From the NCBI GenBank assembly GCA_009693885.1, contig SHWK01000001.1, positions 1-34,968 of the forward strand: a stretch of 34,968 nt of DNA, written 5' to 3'. The position numbers and the translations under genes are program-made. The notes beneath the pieces were generated by a model. The model saw nothing but the letters and a program-made list of their open reading frames with translations, did no database searches and was not told where the DNA came from. The stretch comes from Rickettsiales bacterium (GTDB lineage: Bacteria; Pseudomonadota; Alphaproteobacteria; Rickettsiales; UBA1997). Position 1 is the stretch's first letter. Each line of letters opens with the position of its first letter. Shown one piece after another: positions 2,756 to 21,265 of the stretch.

Positions 2756-3463
2756 ATGCAAAGCTATAATTTGACTATTCTAATATCGCTGATCAATCTC
2801 GGTTTTTTTGGCGGCTTCACCCATTGCAGCGGAATGTGCGGCCCCTTTGTGCTGACACAAGTTTCAAATCGCTTGCAAAATATTTCTCTGGCACAATTTT
2901 CGCGTTTTGAAAAATTACGCAGCATGGCTTTATTGCCTTATCATTGTGGCAGAATCACTACTTATATATGTATTGGATTTTTTTGCTCTCTCATCACTAA
3001 AAATCTTCAAGAGATTGACGGTTTTAATATTATCAGCGGATTACTGCTTTTATTTGCCGCTGCATTTTTCTTGCAAAATCTCTTCGGTAGAAAAATATTT
3101 AAATTTAATTTTCGATTACCATTTCACTTGCCAAAAATTAAAAATCCGTCAATATTAAAAAAACTTTTTCAAAACCCTTATGGTTTTAATGGATTTTTAT
3201 TAGGAATAATCTTAGGATTCATTCCCTGCGGTCTGCTTTATGGAGCATTTGCTCTTTCAGCATCAATCGCCAACCCAATGCTTGCAGCGTTAGGAATGTT
3301 CTTGTTCGGAATCATGACTTTTCCGGCCCTCTTCCTTACTGCTTCGGGCGGATATTTTTTCTTGAAACTCACTAAGGTGAATTTCAAACTGATTTCTAAA
3401 ATAATAATGTTAATTAACGCCATAACACTTGGCGTTATGGGTCTCGAACTAATTATAAAATAA
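2756..3463 (+). CDS. DsbD_2/TauE-SafE-like polytopic membrane protein with an HCxGMCGP motif
   Basis: 235 aa with multiple hydrophobic helices. N-terminal [10 protein letters not shown] motif is typical of the PF13386-like proteins often found with cbb3 oxidase maturation genes. Its stop is 2 nt before the ccoN ATG. Confidence 0.7.
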
Positions 3464-3465
3464 CA

Positions 3466-4893
3466 ATGGCATCAAACCAGATATCTCAAGCTCCAGTCGA
3501 TTATAATTACGACATCATCAAACTATTCACTCTAGCCGCCACTTTTTGGGGAATCATCGGATTTTCGGTTGGCGTTCTCATTGCCTCGCAACTAACTTTT
3601 CCACTTTTAAATTTTGATATTGAATGGTTAAGCTTCGGCAGATTGCGCCCTCTGCACACTTCTGCAGTTATTTTTGCCTTTGGTGGAAATGTCCTTTTTG
3701 CTACTAGTTTTTTTGTAGTGCAGCGCACTTGTCAAACAAGACTTTGGGGCCGCGATTCTTTACTTAAATTTATTTTTTGGGGCTACCAATTATTTATAAT
3801 AATGGCCGCGATTGGCTATATTAATGGCGTTACGCAAGCCAAAGAATATGCTGAACCAGAATGGTACGCTGATTTATGGCTAACCATAGTTTGGGTTTGC
3901 TACTTTTTTGTTTTTATTCTCACATTAAAAAATCGTCAAGAGCCGCATATTTATGTGGCCAACTGGTTTTATTTGGCTTTTATTGTTACGGTTGCAATCT
4001 TGCATATTGTTAATAATTTAGCGATTCCTTTGCGTCTTGATTCTACTCATAGTTATTCATTATTTGGTGGTGTACAAAGTGCGATGATCCAATGGTGGTA
4101 TGGTCATAATGCGGTTGGATTTTTTCTTACTGCGGGTTTTATCGGAATTTTATATTATTACATTCCTAAAAGAGCTAATCGCCCAGTTTATTCTTATCGC
4201 CTTTCAATTTTGCATTTTTGGTCTTTGATTTTTATTTATATTTGGGCGGGCCCTCATCACTTGCATTATACTTCTCTGCCTGATTGGGTACAAACTCTTG
4301 GAATGACATTCTCAATCATGCTATGGATGCCATCTTGGGGCGGCATGATCAACGGTATAATGACTCTCTCCGGTGCGTGGCACAAATTGCGCGAAGATCC
4401 AGTATTGCGCTTCTTAATCACTGCCGTCGCTTTCTATGGCATGAGCACTTTTGAAGGTCCATTAATGGCGATCAAATCCGTCAATTCACTATCGCATTAC
4501 ACTGATTGGACAATCGGCCATGTACATTCTGGCGCTCTCGGATGGGTTGCGATGATAAGCTTCGGAGCCCTTTATCATATGGTACCAATCTTGTGGAATA
4601 AAAAAGATCTATACTCAATCAAATGGGTTAGTGTGCATTTTTGGCTCGCCTCAATCGGTATTGTTCTCTACATCACTGCGATGTGGATTTCTGGCATCAT
4701 GCAAGGCCTAATGTGGCGCGCTTATGATGATATGGGATTCCTACAATACTCATTCATTGAAACAGTCGTAGCAACACATCCACTTTATTTAACCAGAGCA
4801 ATCGGAGGAGTATTTTTCCTTAGCGGCGCTTGTTTAATGGCCTATAATTTCTACAAAACAATTCGCTACGCGCCTATTGCGCAAGCAAAATAA
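3466..4893 (+). CDS. ccoN: cbb3-type cytochrome c oxidase subunit I (CcoN/FixN)
   Basis: 475 aa, about 12 TM helices. Heme-copper oxidase His-containing blocks are present ([28 protein letters not shown]), followed directly by ccoO. Confidence 0.95.
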
Positions 4894-4906
4894 GCAAAGT
4901 TTTATT

Positions 4907-5635
4907 ATGTTTAAACACGATAAAATCGAGAAAAGCTCGATACTACTTTTAATATTAACTGTGATCGTAATTTCAATCGGCGGATTAATTGAAATCACGC
5001 CACTTTTTCGTATCGAAACCACAATTGAAAAAGTTGAAGGCATGCGGCCTTATACCCCGCTTGAGCTGGCTGGATCAAAAATCTATAAACGCGAAGGATG
5101 TTATGGCTGCCATTCACAACAAATTCGCGTTTTGCGTGATGAGGTTGAGCGCTATGGTCACTACTCTCTTGCGGCTGAAAGCATGTATGATTTTCCTTTT
5201 CAATGGGGCTCAAAACGCACAGGGCCAGATCTAGCGCGCATCGGTGGCAAATATTCTGATCAATGGCATGTTATGCATTTGGTAAATCCACGCTCAGTTG
5301 TGCCACAATCAATCATGCCGGGTTATAAATTTTTAGTTGAGCGCGATGCTGATATTTCTGGTCTACAAGATGATATTGCCGTGTTACGCAAACTTGGCAC
5401 GCCATATAGTGATGAGATGGAGCAAAACGCCGTCAGTGATGCGGTGCTACAAGCATCAAACGATCGCGACACTTCTGGATTAGAAAAAAGATACGGCAAA
5501 AAAATCAACATCCATGATTTTGATGGCAATCCTGATCGTGTTTCTGAAATGGATGCTCTGGTTGCTTATCTACAAATGCTTGGATCACTAGTTGATTTTT
5601 CAAAATATGAGCCAGCAACAAAAGAGAAAAAATAA
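4907..5635 (+). CDS. ccoO: cbb3-type cytochrome c oxidase subunit II (CcoO/FixO), monoheme
   Basis: The ATG at 4907 gives [11 protein letters not shown] followed by a TM anchor and one CxxCH heme site (CYGCH). The track ORF begins at a TTG at 4877 that overlaps ccoN, so the ATG is preferred. Confidence 0.93.
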
Positions 5636-5781
5636 TGGACTTCATCATCAATAATGCAGCCACAATCGCTACAATATTTTTCTTTATAGCATTTTGTTAC
5701 GCCGTTTTTTATGCCTTTAGCAAAAAGAATAAAAAGCAGTTTGAGGAATCCGCAAAGATTCCTTTAGATGGAGATAGATAG
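5635..5781 (+). CDS. ccoQ: cbb3 oxidase small subunit CcoQ/FixQ (48 aa), below the ORF-track size cutoff
   Basis: Hand translation: [48 protein letters not shown]. It has a single TM helix followed by a basic patch and a FixQ-like 'F-E/D-E-x-A-x-I/L-P-L-D' tail. The ATG overlaps the ccoO TAA as TAATG. Confidence 0.85.
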   Translation: MDFIINNAATIATIFFFIAFCYAVFYAFSKKNKKQFEESAKIPLDGDR

Positions 5782-7469: not shown

Positions 7470-7597
7470 TGTGTTGAAAAATATATTGTTAAAAAAATAA
7501 AATTGACTTTCTTGCAGTAGAGCCTAAGTTGATCAGCGCTATAAAAAGCATTACAAACTAAAATAATATAAAATAATAATCAAAAAACAGAATAATT

Positions 7598-7885
7598 ATG
7601 AACAAAAAATTTATTAAATCAATGGTTGCTGCTATTGCAGGTTTAGGCCTTCTTTCTTCTTGCTCTATGATGAGCGGAAAAGATTCTCACAAATGTGGTG
7701 GAAAAAATAGCTGTAAAGGTAAAGGTAAAGCTATAGAAGATTCTAACAAATGTTCCTCTTCTAAAAAAGAAGAAGCTAAAAAAGCAGAATCTAACAATTG
7801 CGGCGCTAAAAATGGCTGTTCTGCAGCTAAAGCTGATGTAGCAAAAACTAGCAAATCTAAAAAATCTACCACTAAAAAGAATTAA
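7598..7885 (+). CDS. Putative RiPP precursor: small secreted or lipid-anchored Cys-containing, Lys-rich peptide (bufferin/HvfA-like candidate)
   Basis: 95 aa: MNKKFIKSMVAAIAGLGLLSSC... with lipobox L-S-S-C (Cys22). The mature part has 5 Cys in repeated contexts SHKCGGKNSCKG / SNKCSS / SNNCGAKNGCSA, then a K/S/T-rich tail. The stop is 5 nt (TTG start) or 14 nt (ATG start) upstream of the DUF692 gene. Confidence 0.7.
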   Translation: MNKKFIKSMVAAIAGLGLLSSCSMMSGKDSHKCGGKNSCKGKGKAIEDSNKCSSSKKEEAKKAESNNCGAKNGCSAAKADVAKTSKSKKSTTKKN

Positions 7886-7890
7886 TTTTT

Positions 7891-8787
7891 TTGATTCAAA
7901 TGAAGTTAGCAAAAAGTCCAACCTCCTCAAATCTTGTCGGGGTTGGGCTTCGCTCTCCACATATTCCTTATATTCTCAAAAATCACCAAAAAGTTTCACA
8001 AAAAATTGGATGGTTCGAAGTTCATAGTGAGAATTATTATAATACTCTATCCTCTTCATCAGCAACCCTTCTTCAGGTTAGAAAAGATTTTCATATCAGC
8101 CTACATTCAGTTGGAAATTCTCTCGGATCAGCACAAAAAATTGATCTAAATCATCTTACTAAACTTAAGCAATTAATTGAAGTTATTGATCCATTTTTAG
8201 TTTCTGATCATATTTCTTGGGGCTTAATTGATGGAAAGCACTCAAATGATTTATTACCCCTACCCTACAGCAAAGAGGCTGTAAAAACCCTGTCAGACAA
8301 TATCTCTATAATGCAAGATTTTCTAGGGAGAGAAATTTTAATTGAAAATCCATCAACTTATTTAGCTTATAAACATTCTGAAATGAGCGAAGTTGATTTT
8401 ATTAATATCGTTACAAAAAAAACTGGCTGTAAATTGCTACTCGATATAAATAATATTTATGTTAGTGCACAAAATAATGCGCAATTTGATCCAATAGATT
8501 ATCTTAATCAAGTCGATAAAAAAATTGTCAAAGAAATTCACTTAGCTGGGCATTCCAAAGTGCAAATTTTTGATGGTAAAAAACATCAACAAATTTTGAT
8601 TGATACCCATAATGATTTAGTTTGCGATGAGGTGTGGAGCCTTTATAATCATGCCGTTAAAAGACTTGGCAAAATTCCAACTTTATTAGAATGGGATCAA
8701 GATATTCCAGAATTTAAAGTTTTTGTTAGCGAGGCTAAAAAAGCTAAAAAAATTCTCTTTAACGGATCAATAAAAAAACCGACCTAA
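7891..8787 (+). CDS. DUF692/UPF0276 multinuclear non-heme iron oxidase (MNIO; MbnB/HvfB/BufB-like)
   Basis: 298 aa. Family blocks appear in order: VGVGLRSPH, WFEVHSENYY, HSVGNSLGS, VSDHISWG, LIENPSTY, LLLDINNIYVS, EIHLAGHS, LIDTHND, PTLLEWD. The track start is a TTG at 7891; the ATG at 7900 is an equally plausible start. Confidence 0.9.
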   Translation: MIQMKLAKSPTSSNLVGVGLRSPHIPYILKNHQKVSQKIGWFEVHSENYYNTLSSSSATLLQVRKDFHISLHSVGNSLGSAQKIDLNHLTKLKQLIEVIDPFLVSDHISWGLIDGKHSNDLLPLPYSKEAVKTLSDNISIMQDFLGREILIENPSTYLAYKHSEMSEVDFINIVTKKTGCKLLLDINNIYVSAQNNAQFDPIDYLNQVDKKIVKEIHLAGHSKVQIFDGKKHQQILIDTHNDLVCDEVWSLYNHAVKRLGKIPTLLEWDQDIPEFKVFVSEAKKAKKILFNGSIKKPT

Positions 8788-9554
8788 TGGATCCTAAAAA
8801 CTCAATAACATTATTAGATCTACAACAAGAGTTTTTTGCCCATTTATATGATGATAAAAAACTAAAAATTACCGACTCTCTTGTTCCTTATTCTAACCTT
8901 GAAGCTCTAGCGCGCTTAAATATTTATCGTAATAATGTTTTTGGCAATTTTTCCTCTGTTTTATCTGCGATTTTTAATGTGACTAATAAGATTGTTGGTG
9001 ATGAAAAATTTTCTGCTTTTGTTGAGCAATATATAAAATCTTATTATTCACATAGCGGAAATCTTGATGAATATGGTGAGTTTTTCCCACAATTTCTAAA
9101 TAAAATATTAAGAAAACATAAATTAAGCTATTTATCAGACCTTGCTACGCTTGAATTAGCTCATTATAAAACTTTTTTTGCTGAAAAAATCAAGGATGAA
9201 TTTCCTCTAAAAAAGTTTAAAAAAATATCTCCAGAACATTTTTCAAATCTAGCATTCGCTCTTCATCCATCATGTGTTTTATTTTCTTCAAAATTTCCAA
9301 TTTATTCAATTTGGAATAAGGCAAAAAAATCTAGCAGCAAAAAAGCAGAATTTATACTAGTGGCCAATAGCATGCAACCATTGGTTACAGAGCTATCTGA
9401 AACTGAATTTTTATTTTTAATTGAAATTGGTGAGGGTAAAAAACTTTATCAAGTCTATCAAAAAATTTGTAAAAAAATAAAAAAAGAAGTTGATATAGGA
9501 AAGATATTGAATCACTTTATTACAACTAGAATAATTATTGATTTTTCAACATAA
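8787..9554 (+). CDS. DUF2063 protein (HvfC/BufC-like MNIO partner, putative precursor-recognition subunit)
   Basis: 255 aa. The N-terminal DUF2063 pattern is present: LQQEFFAHL...LARLNIYRNNVFGNFSSVL...VGDEKFSAFVEQYI...SGNLDEYGEFFPQFL. Its ATG overlaps the MNIO stop (TAATG). Confidence 0.85.
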   Translation: MDPKNSITLLDLQQEFFAHLYDDKKLKITDSLVPYSNLEALARLNIYRNNVFGNFSSVLSAIFNVTNKIVGDEKFSAFVEQYIKSYYSHSGNLDEYGEFFPQFLNKILRKHKLSYLSDLATLELAHYKTFFAEKIKDEFPLKKFKKISPEHFSNLAFALHPSCVLFSSKFPIYSIWNKAKKSSSKKAEFILVANSMQPLVTELSETEFLFLIEIGEGKKLYQVYQKICKKIKKEVDIGKILNHFITTRIIIDFST

Positions 9555-16872: not shown

Positions 16873-17040
16873 TTAAACTGATTTATCAAGCCACCAATTA
16901 TTTATAGGCTTTTTTGGTCCACAAGGGCCATCATCATTTGATACGCATGGGCTTTTGATATCCAAAGTTTTTGTAGAACAAGAGGAAATCAGGATTAAAG
17001 CCAAGAAAATAGTACTTATTTTAGTGGTTATTTTTTTCAT
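16873..17040 (-). CDS. Small lipoprotein (55 aa), below the ORF-track cutoff
   Basis: Hand translation: MKKITTKISTIFLALILISSCSTKTLDIKSPCVSNDDGPCGPKKPINNWWLDKSV*. Lipobox I-S-S-C, two further Cys and a WW pair. It lies 24 nt upstream of the 122-aa ORF on the same strand. Confidence 0.6.
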   Translation of the reverse strand: MKKITTKISTIFLALILISSCSTKTLDIKSPCVSNDDGPCGPKKPINNWWLDKSV

Positions 17041-20488: not shown

Positions 20489-21265
20489 ATGCCCAATAAT
20501 CATTTAATTACATTGATTATTGCTTTCAGCTTTTACGGCACTCTTTCTTTTGCGCAAATCGAACAAAACAACCAACAATCTTATGATGATGAATTTGCAA
20601 CTTACGAAGCAGAGTTCACTAAAAACACACAAAAAGAAATCTCCGATCCGCTAGAAAAAATGAATCGCAAAATTTTTGCTTTCAATAACACGCTGGATAT
20701 CTATTTAATTGAGCCGGTAGCTCGTGCTTATCGTGATTACACCACTAAAGCAGTCAGAACATCTTTGCATAATTTTGTAACAAATCTTACTTTGCCATTG
20801 TCAGCGCTAAATTCTTTTGCTCAGGGAAAAGTAGAAAATGGTCTCGCAACTTCCTCAAATTTTTTAATCAATAGCACTATCGGAATTGCTGGATTATTTG
20901 ATGTTGCTGGCAATAAAAAAATTAAATATGAGGAAGAAGATTTTGGCCAAACCCTTGGATATTATGGCGTAAAAAACGGCCCCTATTTAATGCTTCCAAT
21001 ACTAGGACCAAGCACTAGTCGTGATTTTGGAGGATATATTATTGATAGATCAGTCGATCCTATGGGCTTTAATCTTCTCAAAATTGGCGGCTCTACCGAT
21101 GCAATTAGTATCGAATACAGAACCGCAGACGCTACACTCATTGCACTAGATTTAAGAGAACAATTGCTTGATCCAATTGCAGAGGCTAAAAAAGACTCCT
21201 TCGATTTATATGCCACACTTCGAAGTGTTTATATTCAACAACGAGATCAAAAAATAAAACAATAA
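20489..21265 (+). CDS. mlaA: MlaA/VacJ family outer-membrane lipid asymmetry protein
   Basis: 258 aa. Blocks: DPLEKMNRKIFAFNNTLD, EPVARAYRDY, NFVTNL..P, NSTIGIAGLFDVA, EDFGQTLGYYG...GPYLMLPILGPSTSRD. The N-terminal signal has no lipobox Cys. Confidence 0.88.
   Translation: MPNNHLITLIIAFSFYGTLSFAQIEQNNQQSYDDEFATYEAEFTKNTQKEISDPLEKMNRKIFAFNNTLDIYLIEPVARAYRDYTTKAVRTSLHNFVTNLTLPLSALNSFAQGKVENGLATSSNFLINSTIGIAGLFDVAGNKKIKYEEEDFGQTLGYYGVKNGPYLMLPILGPSTSRDFGGYIIDRSVDPMGFNLLKIGGSTDAISIEYRTADATLIALDLREQLLDPIAEAKKDSFDLYATLRSVYIQQRDQKIKQ

Follow-up and report, generated by a model that had tools for sequence, protein, structure and literature searches.

MNIOs that depend on a PME1 partner have, in the cases characterised so far, been found to form 5-thiooxazoles on Cys residues of precursors with a Sec signal, and the genes of these precursors precede the MNIO gene (PMC11626156, PMC12452194, PMC12668002). 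In the bufferin BufA1, CysII and CysIII become 5-thiooxazoles while CysI and CysIV form a disulfide (Leprevost et al., PMC11626156), and HvfA as well as the characterised Buf1 and Buf2 bufferins are substrates of signal peptidase I (SPI; PMC12452194). About 16% of the Buf2 bufferins were, however, reported in 2025 to have predicted lipoprotein signal peptides, and hence to be possibly membrane-anchored (PMC12452194), and in 2026 MNIO-modified members of the RiPPs (peptides made by the ribosome and modified after translation) were shown to be triacylated via the lipoprotein pathway and named 'DAG-RiPPs' (PMC13056109). For such lipidated peptides modification outcompetes export, and one of them, lipo-NedA, an EGKCG peptide of the copper-binding type, carries both the modification and the lipid and was suggested to sequester copper at the membrane; peptides mined in the same study comprise bufferins with a signal for signal peptidase II (SPII), oxazolins, and an uncharacterised CxxxxC group, 'Cluster X' (PMC13056109). 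Here, we analyse a stretch of 34,968 nucleotides from a Rickettsiales bacterium (contig SHWK01000001.1; in the following 'the window', with a G+C content of 34%) which encodes, immediately ahead of an MNIO gene, a short Cys/Lys-rich peptide with a lipobox. We suggest, with moderate confidence, that this peptide is a lipid-anchored, copper-binding modified peptide, that is, a DAG-RiPP of the bufferin/captophorin class, and that it is the substrate of the adjacent BufB-type MNIO acting with its DUF2063 partner. An earlier note on the same DNA had regarded a diacylglyceryl-anchored modified peptide as a new topology, on the understanding that bufferin and Hvf precursors are soluble; the topology had in fact been predicted in 2025 and demonstrated in 2026, and the Buf2 signals contradict the understanding. 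Since lipidated MNIO RiPPs have thus been published, the window system works like a known kind and opens no new category. What appears to be new is a lineage-specific, uncharacterised precursor family within the known lipidated bufferin-type RiPPs, which may coincide with the CxxxxC group or Cluster X.

The peptide gene, its segments and the two enzyme genes are as follows.

7598..7885, + strand: candidate precursor gene, ATG start, 95 residues, Cys/Lys-rich, with lipobox; NCBI MSP33281.1, 'hypothetical protein EXR06_00050'
7598..7660, + strand: signal peptide, residues 1-21, by a rule-based test; n-region MNKKFIK, h-region SMVAAIAGLGLL
7652..7663, + strand: lipobox L19-S20-S21-C22, of which C22 is predicted to begin the mature peptide and to carry diacylglycerol; Ser stands at +2
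7685..7720, + strand: SHKCGGKNSCKG, residues 30-41, two [N/H]-x-C units (H-K-C33 and N-S-C39) forming one Cx5C pair
7742..7759, + strand: SNKCSS, residues 49-54, a single [N/H]-x-C unit (N-K-C52)
7790..7825, + strand: SNNCGAKNGCSA, residues 65-76, two [N/H]-x-C units (N-N-C68 and N-G-C74)
7844..7882, + strand: Lys/Ser/Thr-rich C-terminal tail KTSKSKKSTTKKN, residues 83-95, predicted to be disordered
7891..8787, + strand: MNIO (DUF692) of the BufB type; Pfam PF05114 at 1e-94, PDB 3BWW at 4e-37, no signal peptide
8787..9554, + strand: DUF2063 partner (BufC/HvfC-like, 'PME-type 1'); Pfam PF09836 at 4.7e-22, start overlapping the MNIO stop codon

The ORF (open reading frame), the L-S-S-C lipobox, both 12-residue segments, SNKCSS and the Lys/Ser/Thr-rich tail are all present as the earlier note had described them, and the complete product reads MNKKFIKSMVAAIAGLGLLSSCSMMSGKDSHKCGGKNSCKGKGKAIEDSNKCSSSKKEEAKKAESNNCGAKNGCSAAKADVAKTSKSKKSTTKKN. 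The MNIO gene starts 5 nucleotides (TTG) or 14 nucleotides (ATG at 7900) past the stop codon of the peptide gene, and a scan of the + strand between the two genes found no terminator-like site. The NCBIfam equivalog NF050167, 'MNIO family bufferin maturase', matches the MNIO with 337.5 bits (cutoff 310), and the HvfB model yields 217.6 bits, below its cutoff of 360. The DUF2063 protein, which likewise has no signal peptide, is matched weakly by the NCBIfam HvfC model (56 bits, cutoff 142); its gene is kept 3' of the MNIO gene in all related loci. Three features of a bufferin/captophorin biosynthetic gene cluster (BGC) are found together here: (i) a BufB-type MNIO, (ii) a DUF2063 gene directly downstream, and (iii) a Cys-containing precursor with a Sec-type signal whose gene precedes the MNIO gene. 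Likewise, two of the marks of a DAG-RiPP, a lipobox signal (by the rule-based test) and adjacency to a RiPP gene cluster, are both present. Hence the peptide gene sits in the precursor position of a BufB-type MNIO/DUF2063 operon, as the RiPP context proposed in the earlier note would have it. DoxX, which is a frequent yet not obligatory core component of published bufferin BGCs (PMC12452194), was not found between the DUF2063 gene and thiL nor among the scanned ORFs of the window, and occurs in three of the related loci, L078, L081 and L083. The MNIO position equivalent to FonB Phe250 (D-F in PDB 3BWW) lies in E-W-D-Q-D in all groups, which is uninformative because the loci were collected with the pattern EWDQDIPE.

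Relatives of the peptide were gathered by a sequence search followed by a profile search, which yielded 116 related clusters at 90% identity; the counts given below refer to a family set of 150 sequences, except where 116 members are named. Our lipoprotein call combines a PROSITE PS51257-style rule with conservation. The N-terminus, with 3 Lys among its first 7 residues and an uncharged h-region, satisfies this rule with the Cys at position 22; across the 35 kb of the window, the rule is passed by just 5 of 592 candidate starts, this one included. When the canonical lipobox is defined as [LVIAT][ASTG][SAG]C, it is present in 147/150 family members; the Cys is residue 22 in 136/150, and all 150 retain a Cys where the h-region ends. 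It is followed at +2 by Ser in 98/116 members, by Ala in 13/116 and by Asp in 0/116. In our alignment A1, M1, F5, S8, C22 and S23 are invariant, so that the lipobox Cys does not vary whereas the remaining mature peptide diverges and changes in length. The prediction that the peptide bears a lipoprotein-type signal is thus supported, and this signal is conserved in essentially the whole family.

A peptide modified by the MNIO might instead be soluble and periplasmic, like Buf1 or HvfA, if SPI cleaved it, for example after S23, and left C22 unlipidated. S21 and S23 do fit the small-residue rule for positions -3 and -1, such that an SPI site after S23 is formally possible and counts to that extent against a lipid anchor, and HvfA as well as the characterised Buf1 and Buf2 are cleaved in this manner. 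However, substrates of SPI have no reason to conserve a Cys at the h-region end in all members, or the canonical lipobox in nearly all; so few start sites of the window pass the lipobox rule; an 'ISSCS' lipobox also occurs on another small ORF of the window; and MNIO precursors with such signals have been demonstrated to be lipidated (PMC13056109). We consider a soluble product to be quite improbable.

The same family data bear on whether the ORF is a product of chance, that is, a low-complexity reading frame in an AT-rich intergenic region. Its sequence is indeed of low complexity, Pfam and NCBIfam give zero matches among the 14/14 family members scanned, and a crude codon comparison with the closest orthologue, in L001, reveals 13 non-synonymous but just 5 synonymous differences. 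Such fast change indicates that constraint acts mainly on the signal, on the lipobox and on the Cys units and not on the ORF as a whole. Yet the start, the signal peptide, the lipobox and the Cys contexts are kept across 150 homologues even as their DNA diverges, with indels that preserve the frame, and position and orientation upstream of the MNIO gene are fixed. Family-wide conservation has thus effectively refuted a spurious ORF, to which we give practically no credence; the earlier note had named missing conservation of the ORF in related genomes, or loss of the lipobox Cys or of the Cys contexts from orthologues, as grounds for abandoning its reading, and all of these are retained.

The family is narrowly distributed. 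An exhaustive HMMER pass over 1.84 billion representatives returned only 47 clusters at 50% identity, a metagenome scan with the family alignment just 7 loci, and every named member stems from a metagenome-assembled genome (MAG) of 'Rickettsiales' or unclassified Pseudomonadota, these MAGs being uncultured and AT-rich. The mature regions consist of 27% Lys and are of low complexity and variable length. AlphaFold2 (AF2), when supplied with the family alignment, predicts a helix at residues 3-20 alone, corresponding to the signal, and the mature part has a pLDDT below 50. Two members, P0095 and P0101, carry the JGI/IMG label 'uncharacterized low-complexity protein', and existing COG-type annotation may already cover part of the family. 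The MAG records of L001, L002, L007 and L065 are titled 'Rickettsia typhi isolate ...' yet have sample-style isolate names, and these records encode an MNIO, kbl and, in L001, cbb3 oxidase genes, so that the species label looks wrong.

Within the mature peptide, all 5 Cys residues (C33, C39, C52, C68 and C74) have N or H at position -2, an outcome that none of 200,000 shuffles preserving the composition of the mature sequence reached; two Cx5C pairs, by comparison, arise in 0.8% of the shuffles. Of the 568 mature Cys across the family, 501 (88%) are preceded at -2 by N or H, while the lipobox Cys has neither there in any of the 150 members. The 12-residue repeat of the earlier note is therefore not due to chance, but the true unit is shorter, [S/A/K]-[N/H]-x-C, and each 12-residue segment consists of two units back to back. 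The Cys contexts are kept among orthologues; the number of repeats is not, the mature Cys ranging from 2 to 9 per member, and the first CGGKNSC copy is absent from many orthologues. In the first segment, S30, H31 and C33 are nearly invariant in alignment A1. CGAKNGC in the second segment is the best-conserved element of the core, with C68, G69, N72, G73 and C74 invariant in alignment A2. Of 116 members, 68 contain C[GAS]xKNxC and 106 contain Cx4-5C pairs, and relatives repeat (E/D)-x-[N/H]-K-C-[SA]-[SA]-K-K units similar to SNKCSS in variable number. The number of Cys is odd in 72/150 members, which speaks against a role in disulfides alone. Finally, in the close orthologue P0002 (L087:2307-2588; 77% identity) the near-invariant Cys33 (S-H-K-C) is replaced by Ser (S-H-A-S), and individual Cys units are hence dispensable.

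These contexts recall those of modified Cys in BufA1 (DUF2282, PF10048; Caulobacter vibrioides and relatives, PMC11626156). Among 60 BufA1 sequences of the fetched loci, N stands at -2 of CysII in 60/60 and H at -2 of CysIII in 56/60, while CysI and CysIV have neither N nor H at this position. The two BufA1 Cys that are modified (in K-N-D-C and H-S-C-A-G) thus share the [N/H]-x-C context with the Cys of the lipopeptide, and the enzyme subfamily is shared as well. On the level of sequence, the lipopeptide is essentially a string of Cys contexts of the modified type, and the one Cys needed free for lipidation lacks that context. The likeness to the G-K-N-D-C core of DUF2282 proteins pointed out in the earlier note accordingly stands at the level of the motif and goes no further: hhalign comparison of the mature region with the BufA1 and BufA2 alignments gave probabilities of 0.7% and 2.9%, respectively, over just 9-13 aligned columns, for which reason we do not claim homology. 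BufA1 and BufA2 themselves score 7.6% against each other, and this test therefore has little power for short Cys-rich peptides. Unlike BufA1, the lipopeptide has a signal of the SPII rather than the SPI type, lacks the four-Cys fold and the disulfide clamp, and is disordered and of low complexity.

Membership in the known precursor groups is not supported by profile and motif searches: PF10048 (BufA1) matches none of 14/14 family members scanned, NF050166 (BufA2) again none of the 14/14, although the positive controls L068 and L070 are matched, and EGKCG or GKCG occurs in 0/150. The window precursor thus belongs to none of BufA1, BufA2 and the EGKCG peptides by these tests. Lipo-NedA of Neisseria dentiae (PMC13056109) nevertheless resembles it in several respects, namely (i) the SPII-type lipobox signal on a short Cys-rich precursor, (ii) the position of the precursor gene directly upstream of the genes for an MNIO and its DUF2063 partner, (iii) the Lys-rich, repeat-based core with copper sequestration at the membrane as the proposed role, and (iv) modification before export, which for the window peptide would follow from the enzymes being devoid of signal peptides. 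It differs in that the core of the window family is built from [N/H]-x-C units in place of EGKCG, that the window MNIO scores as BufB and not as HvfB, and that the family, known from sequence alone, is confined to uncultured 'Rickettsiales' MAGs.

The BufA2 proteins with lipoprotein signals (Buf_6/12Cys, NF050166; PMC12452194; here L068-L071) likewise combine a lipobox with a BufB-type MNIO and DUF2063, and CGGKNSCKG of the window peptide is nearly identical to their unit CAGKNSCKG, albeit across 9 columns only of the SHKCGGKNSCKG segment. However, BufA2 proteins have 6 or 12 Cys where the window family has 2 to 9, they form a small folded domain while the window peptide is predicted to be disordered, and the third Cys of their unit is a Lys in the window unit. 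In Planctomycetota, the BufA2 proteins encoded upstream of the MNIO carry lipoboxes themselves: the precursors L068-L071 (at about 3470-3900) all exhibit a lipobox-like Cys (VTSSC, GASC, LGGC), in L069 together with a twin-arginine-like n-region (SRPTRRDFTKL).

Similar by description are the 'CxxxxC' family (PMC12452194) and Cluster X (PMC13056109), which are uncharacterised signal-peptide precursors beside bufferin-type MNIO/DUF2063 genes, with SPII signals in the case of Cluster X. The pairs in the window peptide are Cx5C, and Cx4C with N at the right place is found in only 38/116 family members. Published CxxxxC BGCs contain DoxX and, in 54%, Lactamase_B_2; none of the latter was seen in related loci with Pfam annotation. 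Moreover, RefSeq (WP_) proteins from cultured bacteria are found among the CxxxxC members, whereas the window family occurs in MAGs only, the groups being compared here by their descriptions, and MSP33281, MBP7709788, MES2677591, HLD77169 and MDX2083040 were not found among the supplement rows listed for PMC12452194.

Related loci were reached from the MNIO side, from the peptide side and from metagenomes. They reveal one syntenic locus, in which a divergent kbl is followed by (bufA1), lipopeptide, (MNIO, DUF2063, (DoxX)), thiL, RDD and lpxC, with four states of the genes given in parentheses and of the lipopeptide gene.

Class A: BufA1 - lipopeptide - MNIO - DUF2063 (- DoxX); 6 distinct loci, at L008:3389-3976, L078:4697-5183, L080:151-658, L081:3628-4219, L083:3639-4192 and L090:1636-2325
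Class B: lipopeptide - MNIO - DUF2063; 14 distinct loci, of which the window is one, and in addition L007, truncated at the contig end
Class C: lipopeptide - thiL, without MNIO or DUF2063; 3 loci of one subclade (L082, L084/85, L086), at L082:4001-4331, L084:2408-2867 and L086:878-1224
Class D: MNIO - DUF2063, without a peptide gene; 1 locus (L004)

Of the 24 distinct loci with the peptide gene, 21 have it directly ahead of an MNIO gene. Class B loci offer no other Cys-rich signal-peptide ORF and thus no other candidate precursor in cis, while in class A BufA1 (DUF2282) and the lipopeptide are tandem, unrelated candidate precursors before one MNIO. More distant MNIOs (~45% identity) have a classical BufA1 gene upstream. 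In L007, the contig end truncates the lipopeptide gene (L007:2-325), whose lipobox has a doubled Cys (LTSSCC), and immediately ahead of the MNIO coding region (L007:351-480) lies a stretch that encodes a short tandem repeat, AGQIKAGQIKAGQVK, taken by the longest ORF as an N-terminal extension.

These gene orders also give rise to objections to a modified peptide. The class C subclade keeps intact peptides which retain their [N/H]-x-C Cys, although MNIO and DUF2063 were cleanly lost between peptide and thiL, so that the peptide may work without modification. Conversely, L004 retains MNIO and DUF2063 without a peptide gene, no remnant of which was found in the intergenic gap (L004:3822-3982); trans arrangements thus exist, and the true substrate could be a BufA1 whose gene lies at another place in the window's genome. 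Classes C and D together establish that the coupling of peptide and enzymes is not obligatory. In addition, a BufA1 gene lies directly upstream in the six class A loci, hhalign, Pfam and NCBIfam found no profile-level homology to any proven substrate, and the [N/H]-x-C rule has exceptions, since CysI of BufA2 stands in H-A-C and is yet unmodified. Apart from the last, these observations speak for an accessory role, in which the peptide would be a genuine small lipoprotein of the bufferin locus that is not itself modified: it would bind copper or a different soft metal directly, through Cys thiolates and His, or would have a role in the envelope by way of its polycationic chain, while the MNIO acts on a BufA1 whose gene lies upstream, as in class A, or at another genomic site. 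A precedent exists in several lipoprotein clusters of bufferin BGCs that were classed as non-RiPP, one 'hypothetical protein' cluster among them (PMC13056109).

Several findings stand against such an accessory role. In the 14 class B loci no other Cys-rich signal-peptide ORF lies beside the well-conserved MNIO and DUF2063 genes; even in class A the lipopeptide gene is nearer to the MNIO gene than is that of BufA1, with gaps of 7-105 nucleotides; and the Cys of the peptide share the context of the modified, not of the unmodified, Cys of BufA1. Furthermore, stand-alone precursor genes are common for both Buf1 and Buf2, and tandem precursor genes are documented too (PMC12452194), which softens the objections from classes C and D as well as that from BufA1. 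On balance, we regard an unmodified accessory lipoprotein as unlikely, though it is the alternative to be taken most seriously.

If, as we prefer to assume, the peptide is a substrate of the adjacent enzymes, the following order of events may be proposed. In the cytoplasm, the MNIO-DUF2063 pair would convert some or all of C33, C39, C52, C68 and C74 to 5-thiooxazoles (-4 Da each) and would spare C22, which is in an S-S-C context. The Sec system would then export the peptide, Lgt would add diacylglycerol to C22, LspA would cleave before C22, and Lnt would N-acylate this residue. The conversion to 5-thiooxazoles, like the binding of copper, is suggested here by the enzyme family and the Cys context, and by these only. 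The envisaged sequence mirrors the one shown for lipo-DybA and lipo-NedA (PMC13056109). Lol-dependent transfer to the outer membrane might follow, as Ser and not Asp is at position +2. The +2 sorting rule derives from E. coli and may not hold in the lineage of the window. The product would be a tethered, flexible and polycationic chain with up to five thiooxazole sites, along with His sites, that sequesters copper at a membrane face.

It is then tempting to speculate on how the four states of the locus are related. Possibly, a single BufB/DUF2063 pair acts on two substrates that differ chemically and whose genes lie in tandem, that is, the folded and soluble BufA1 and a disordered, polycationic, lipid-anchored [N/H]-x-C chain, as a soluble-plus-tethered pair for copper buffering; in the streamlined freshwater alphaproteobacteria represented by the window the tethered peptide would have become the sole substrate, and in one subclade it would have outlived the enzyme. 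We put this forward tentatively. If it applied, the same Cys motifs would have an activity that is independent of modification. This modular pattern of gain and loss, and the possible dual-substrate operon, are what we find most interesting.

Provided that the peptides are indeed modified, the family would constitute the simplest natural set of substrates for bufferin-type MNIOs, with mature peptides that may be as small as ~30 residues, have no fold and contain between two and nine independent [N/H]-x-C units, and might thus be useful for defining what BufB and BufC recognise. Lipid-anchored copper-binding RiPPs would then also be known from a BufB-type system and from uncultured alphaproteobacteria of fresh water, which are abundant and have streamlined genomes. 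Likewise, the four gene-order states at one syntenic locus would represent a natural experiment on the need for modification and on one MNIO with two precursor types.

The surroundings of the operon in the window are those of the syntenic locus, with kbl divergent upstream of the peptide gene and with thiL and an RDD-family gene after the DUF2063 gene. The remaining genes are housekeeping genes, among them ccoNO, SurA, Ctp, ispG, MlaAC, mnmE, tsf, rpsB and nuo. The divergent intergenic region between kbl and the peptide gene contains one promoter candidate for which the evidence is weak, a scan of the region having found promoter-like sites to be no more numerous than expected from shuffles.

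7474..7503, + strand: sigma-70-like promoter candidate, 10/12 positions matching

At 2756-5781 (+), a DsbD_2-family membrane protein with HCSGMCGPF is encoded directly upstream of a block made up of ccoN, ccoO and a small ORF resembling ccoQ; a functional link of the peptide operon with the cbb3 oxidase cluster was considered and rejected, as the two are adjacent only in the closest relatives L001 and L089. MlaA usually carries a lipobox. Its homologue at 20489-21265 (+; PF04333, 5e-65) was tried as a lipoprotein positive control from within the window and dropped, because the first 50 residues (MPNNHLITLIIAFSFYGTLSFAQIEQ...) contain no Cys and the protein as called hence has no lipobox. The other small ORF with a lipobox, at 16873-17040 (-), has no Pfam match; it encodes 55 residues, MKKITTKISTIFLALILISSCSTKTLDIKSPCVSNDDGPCGPKKPINNWWLDKSV, with a canonical lipoprotein signal and an ISSC-S lipobox, and lies upstream of an unannotated ORF of 122 residues and of the S41 peptidase/SurA genes.

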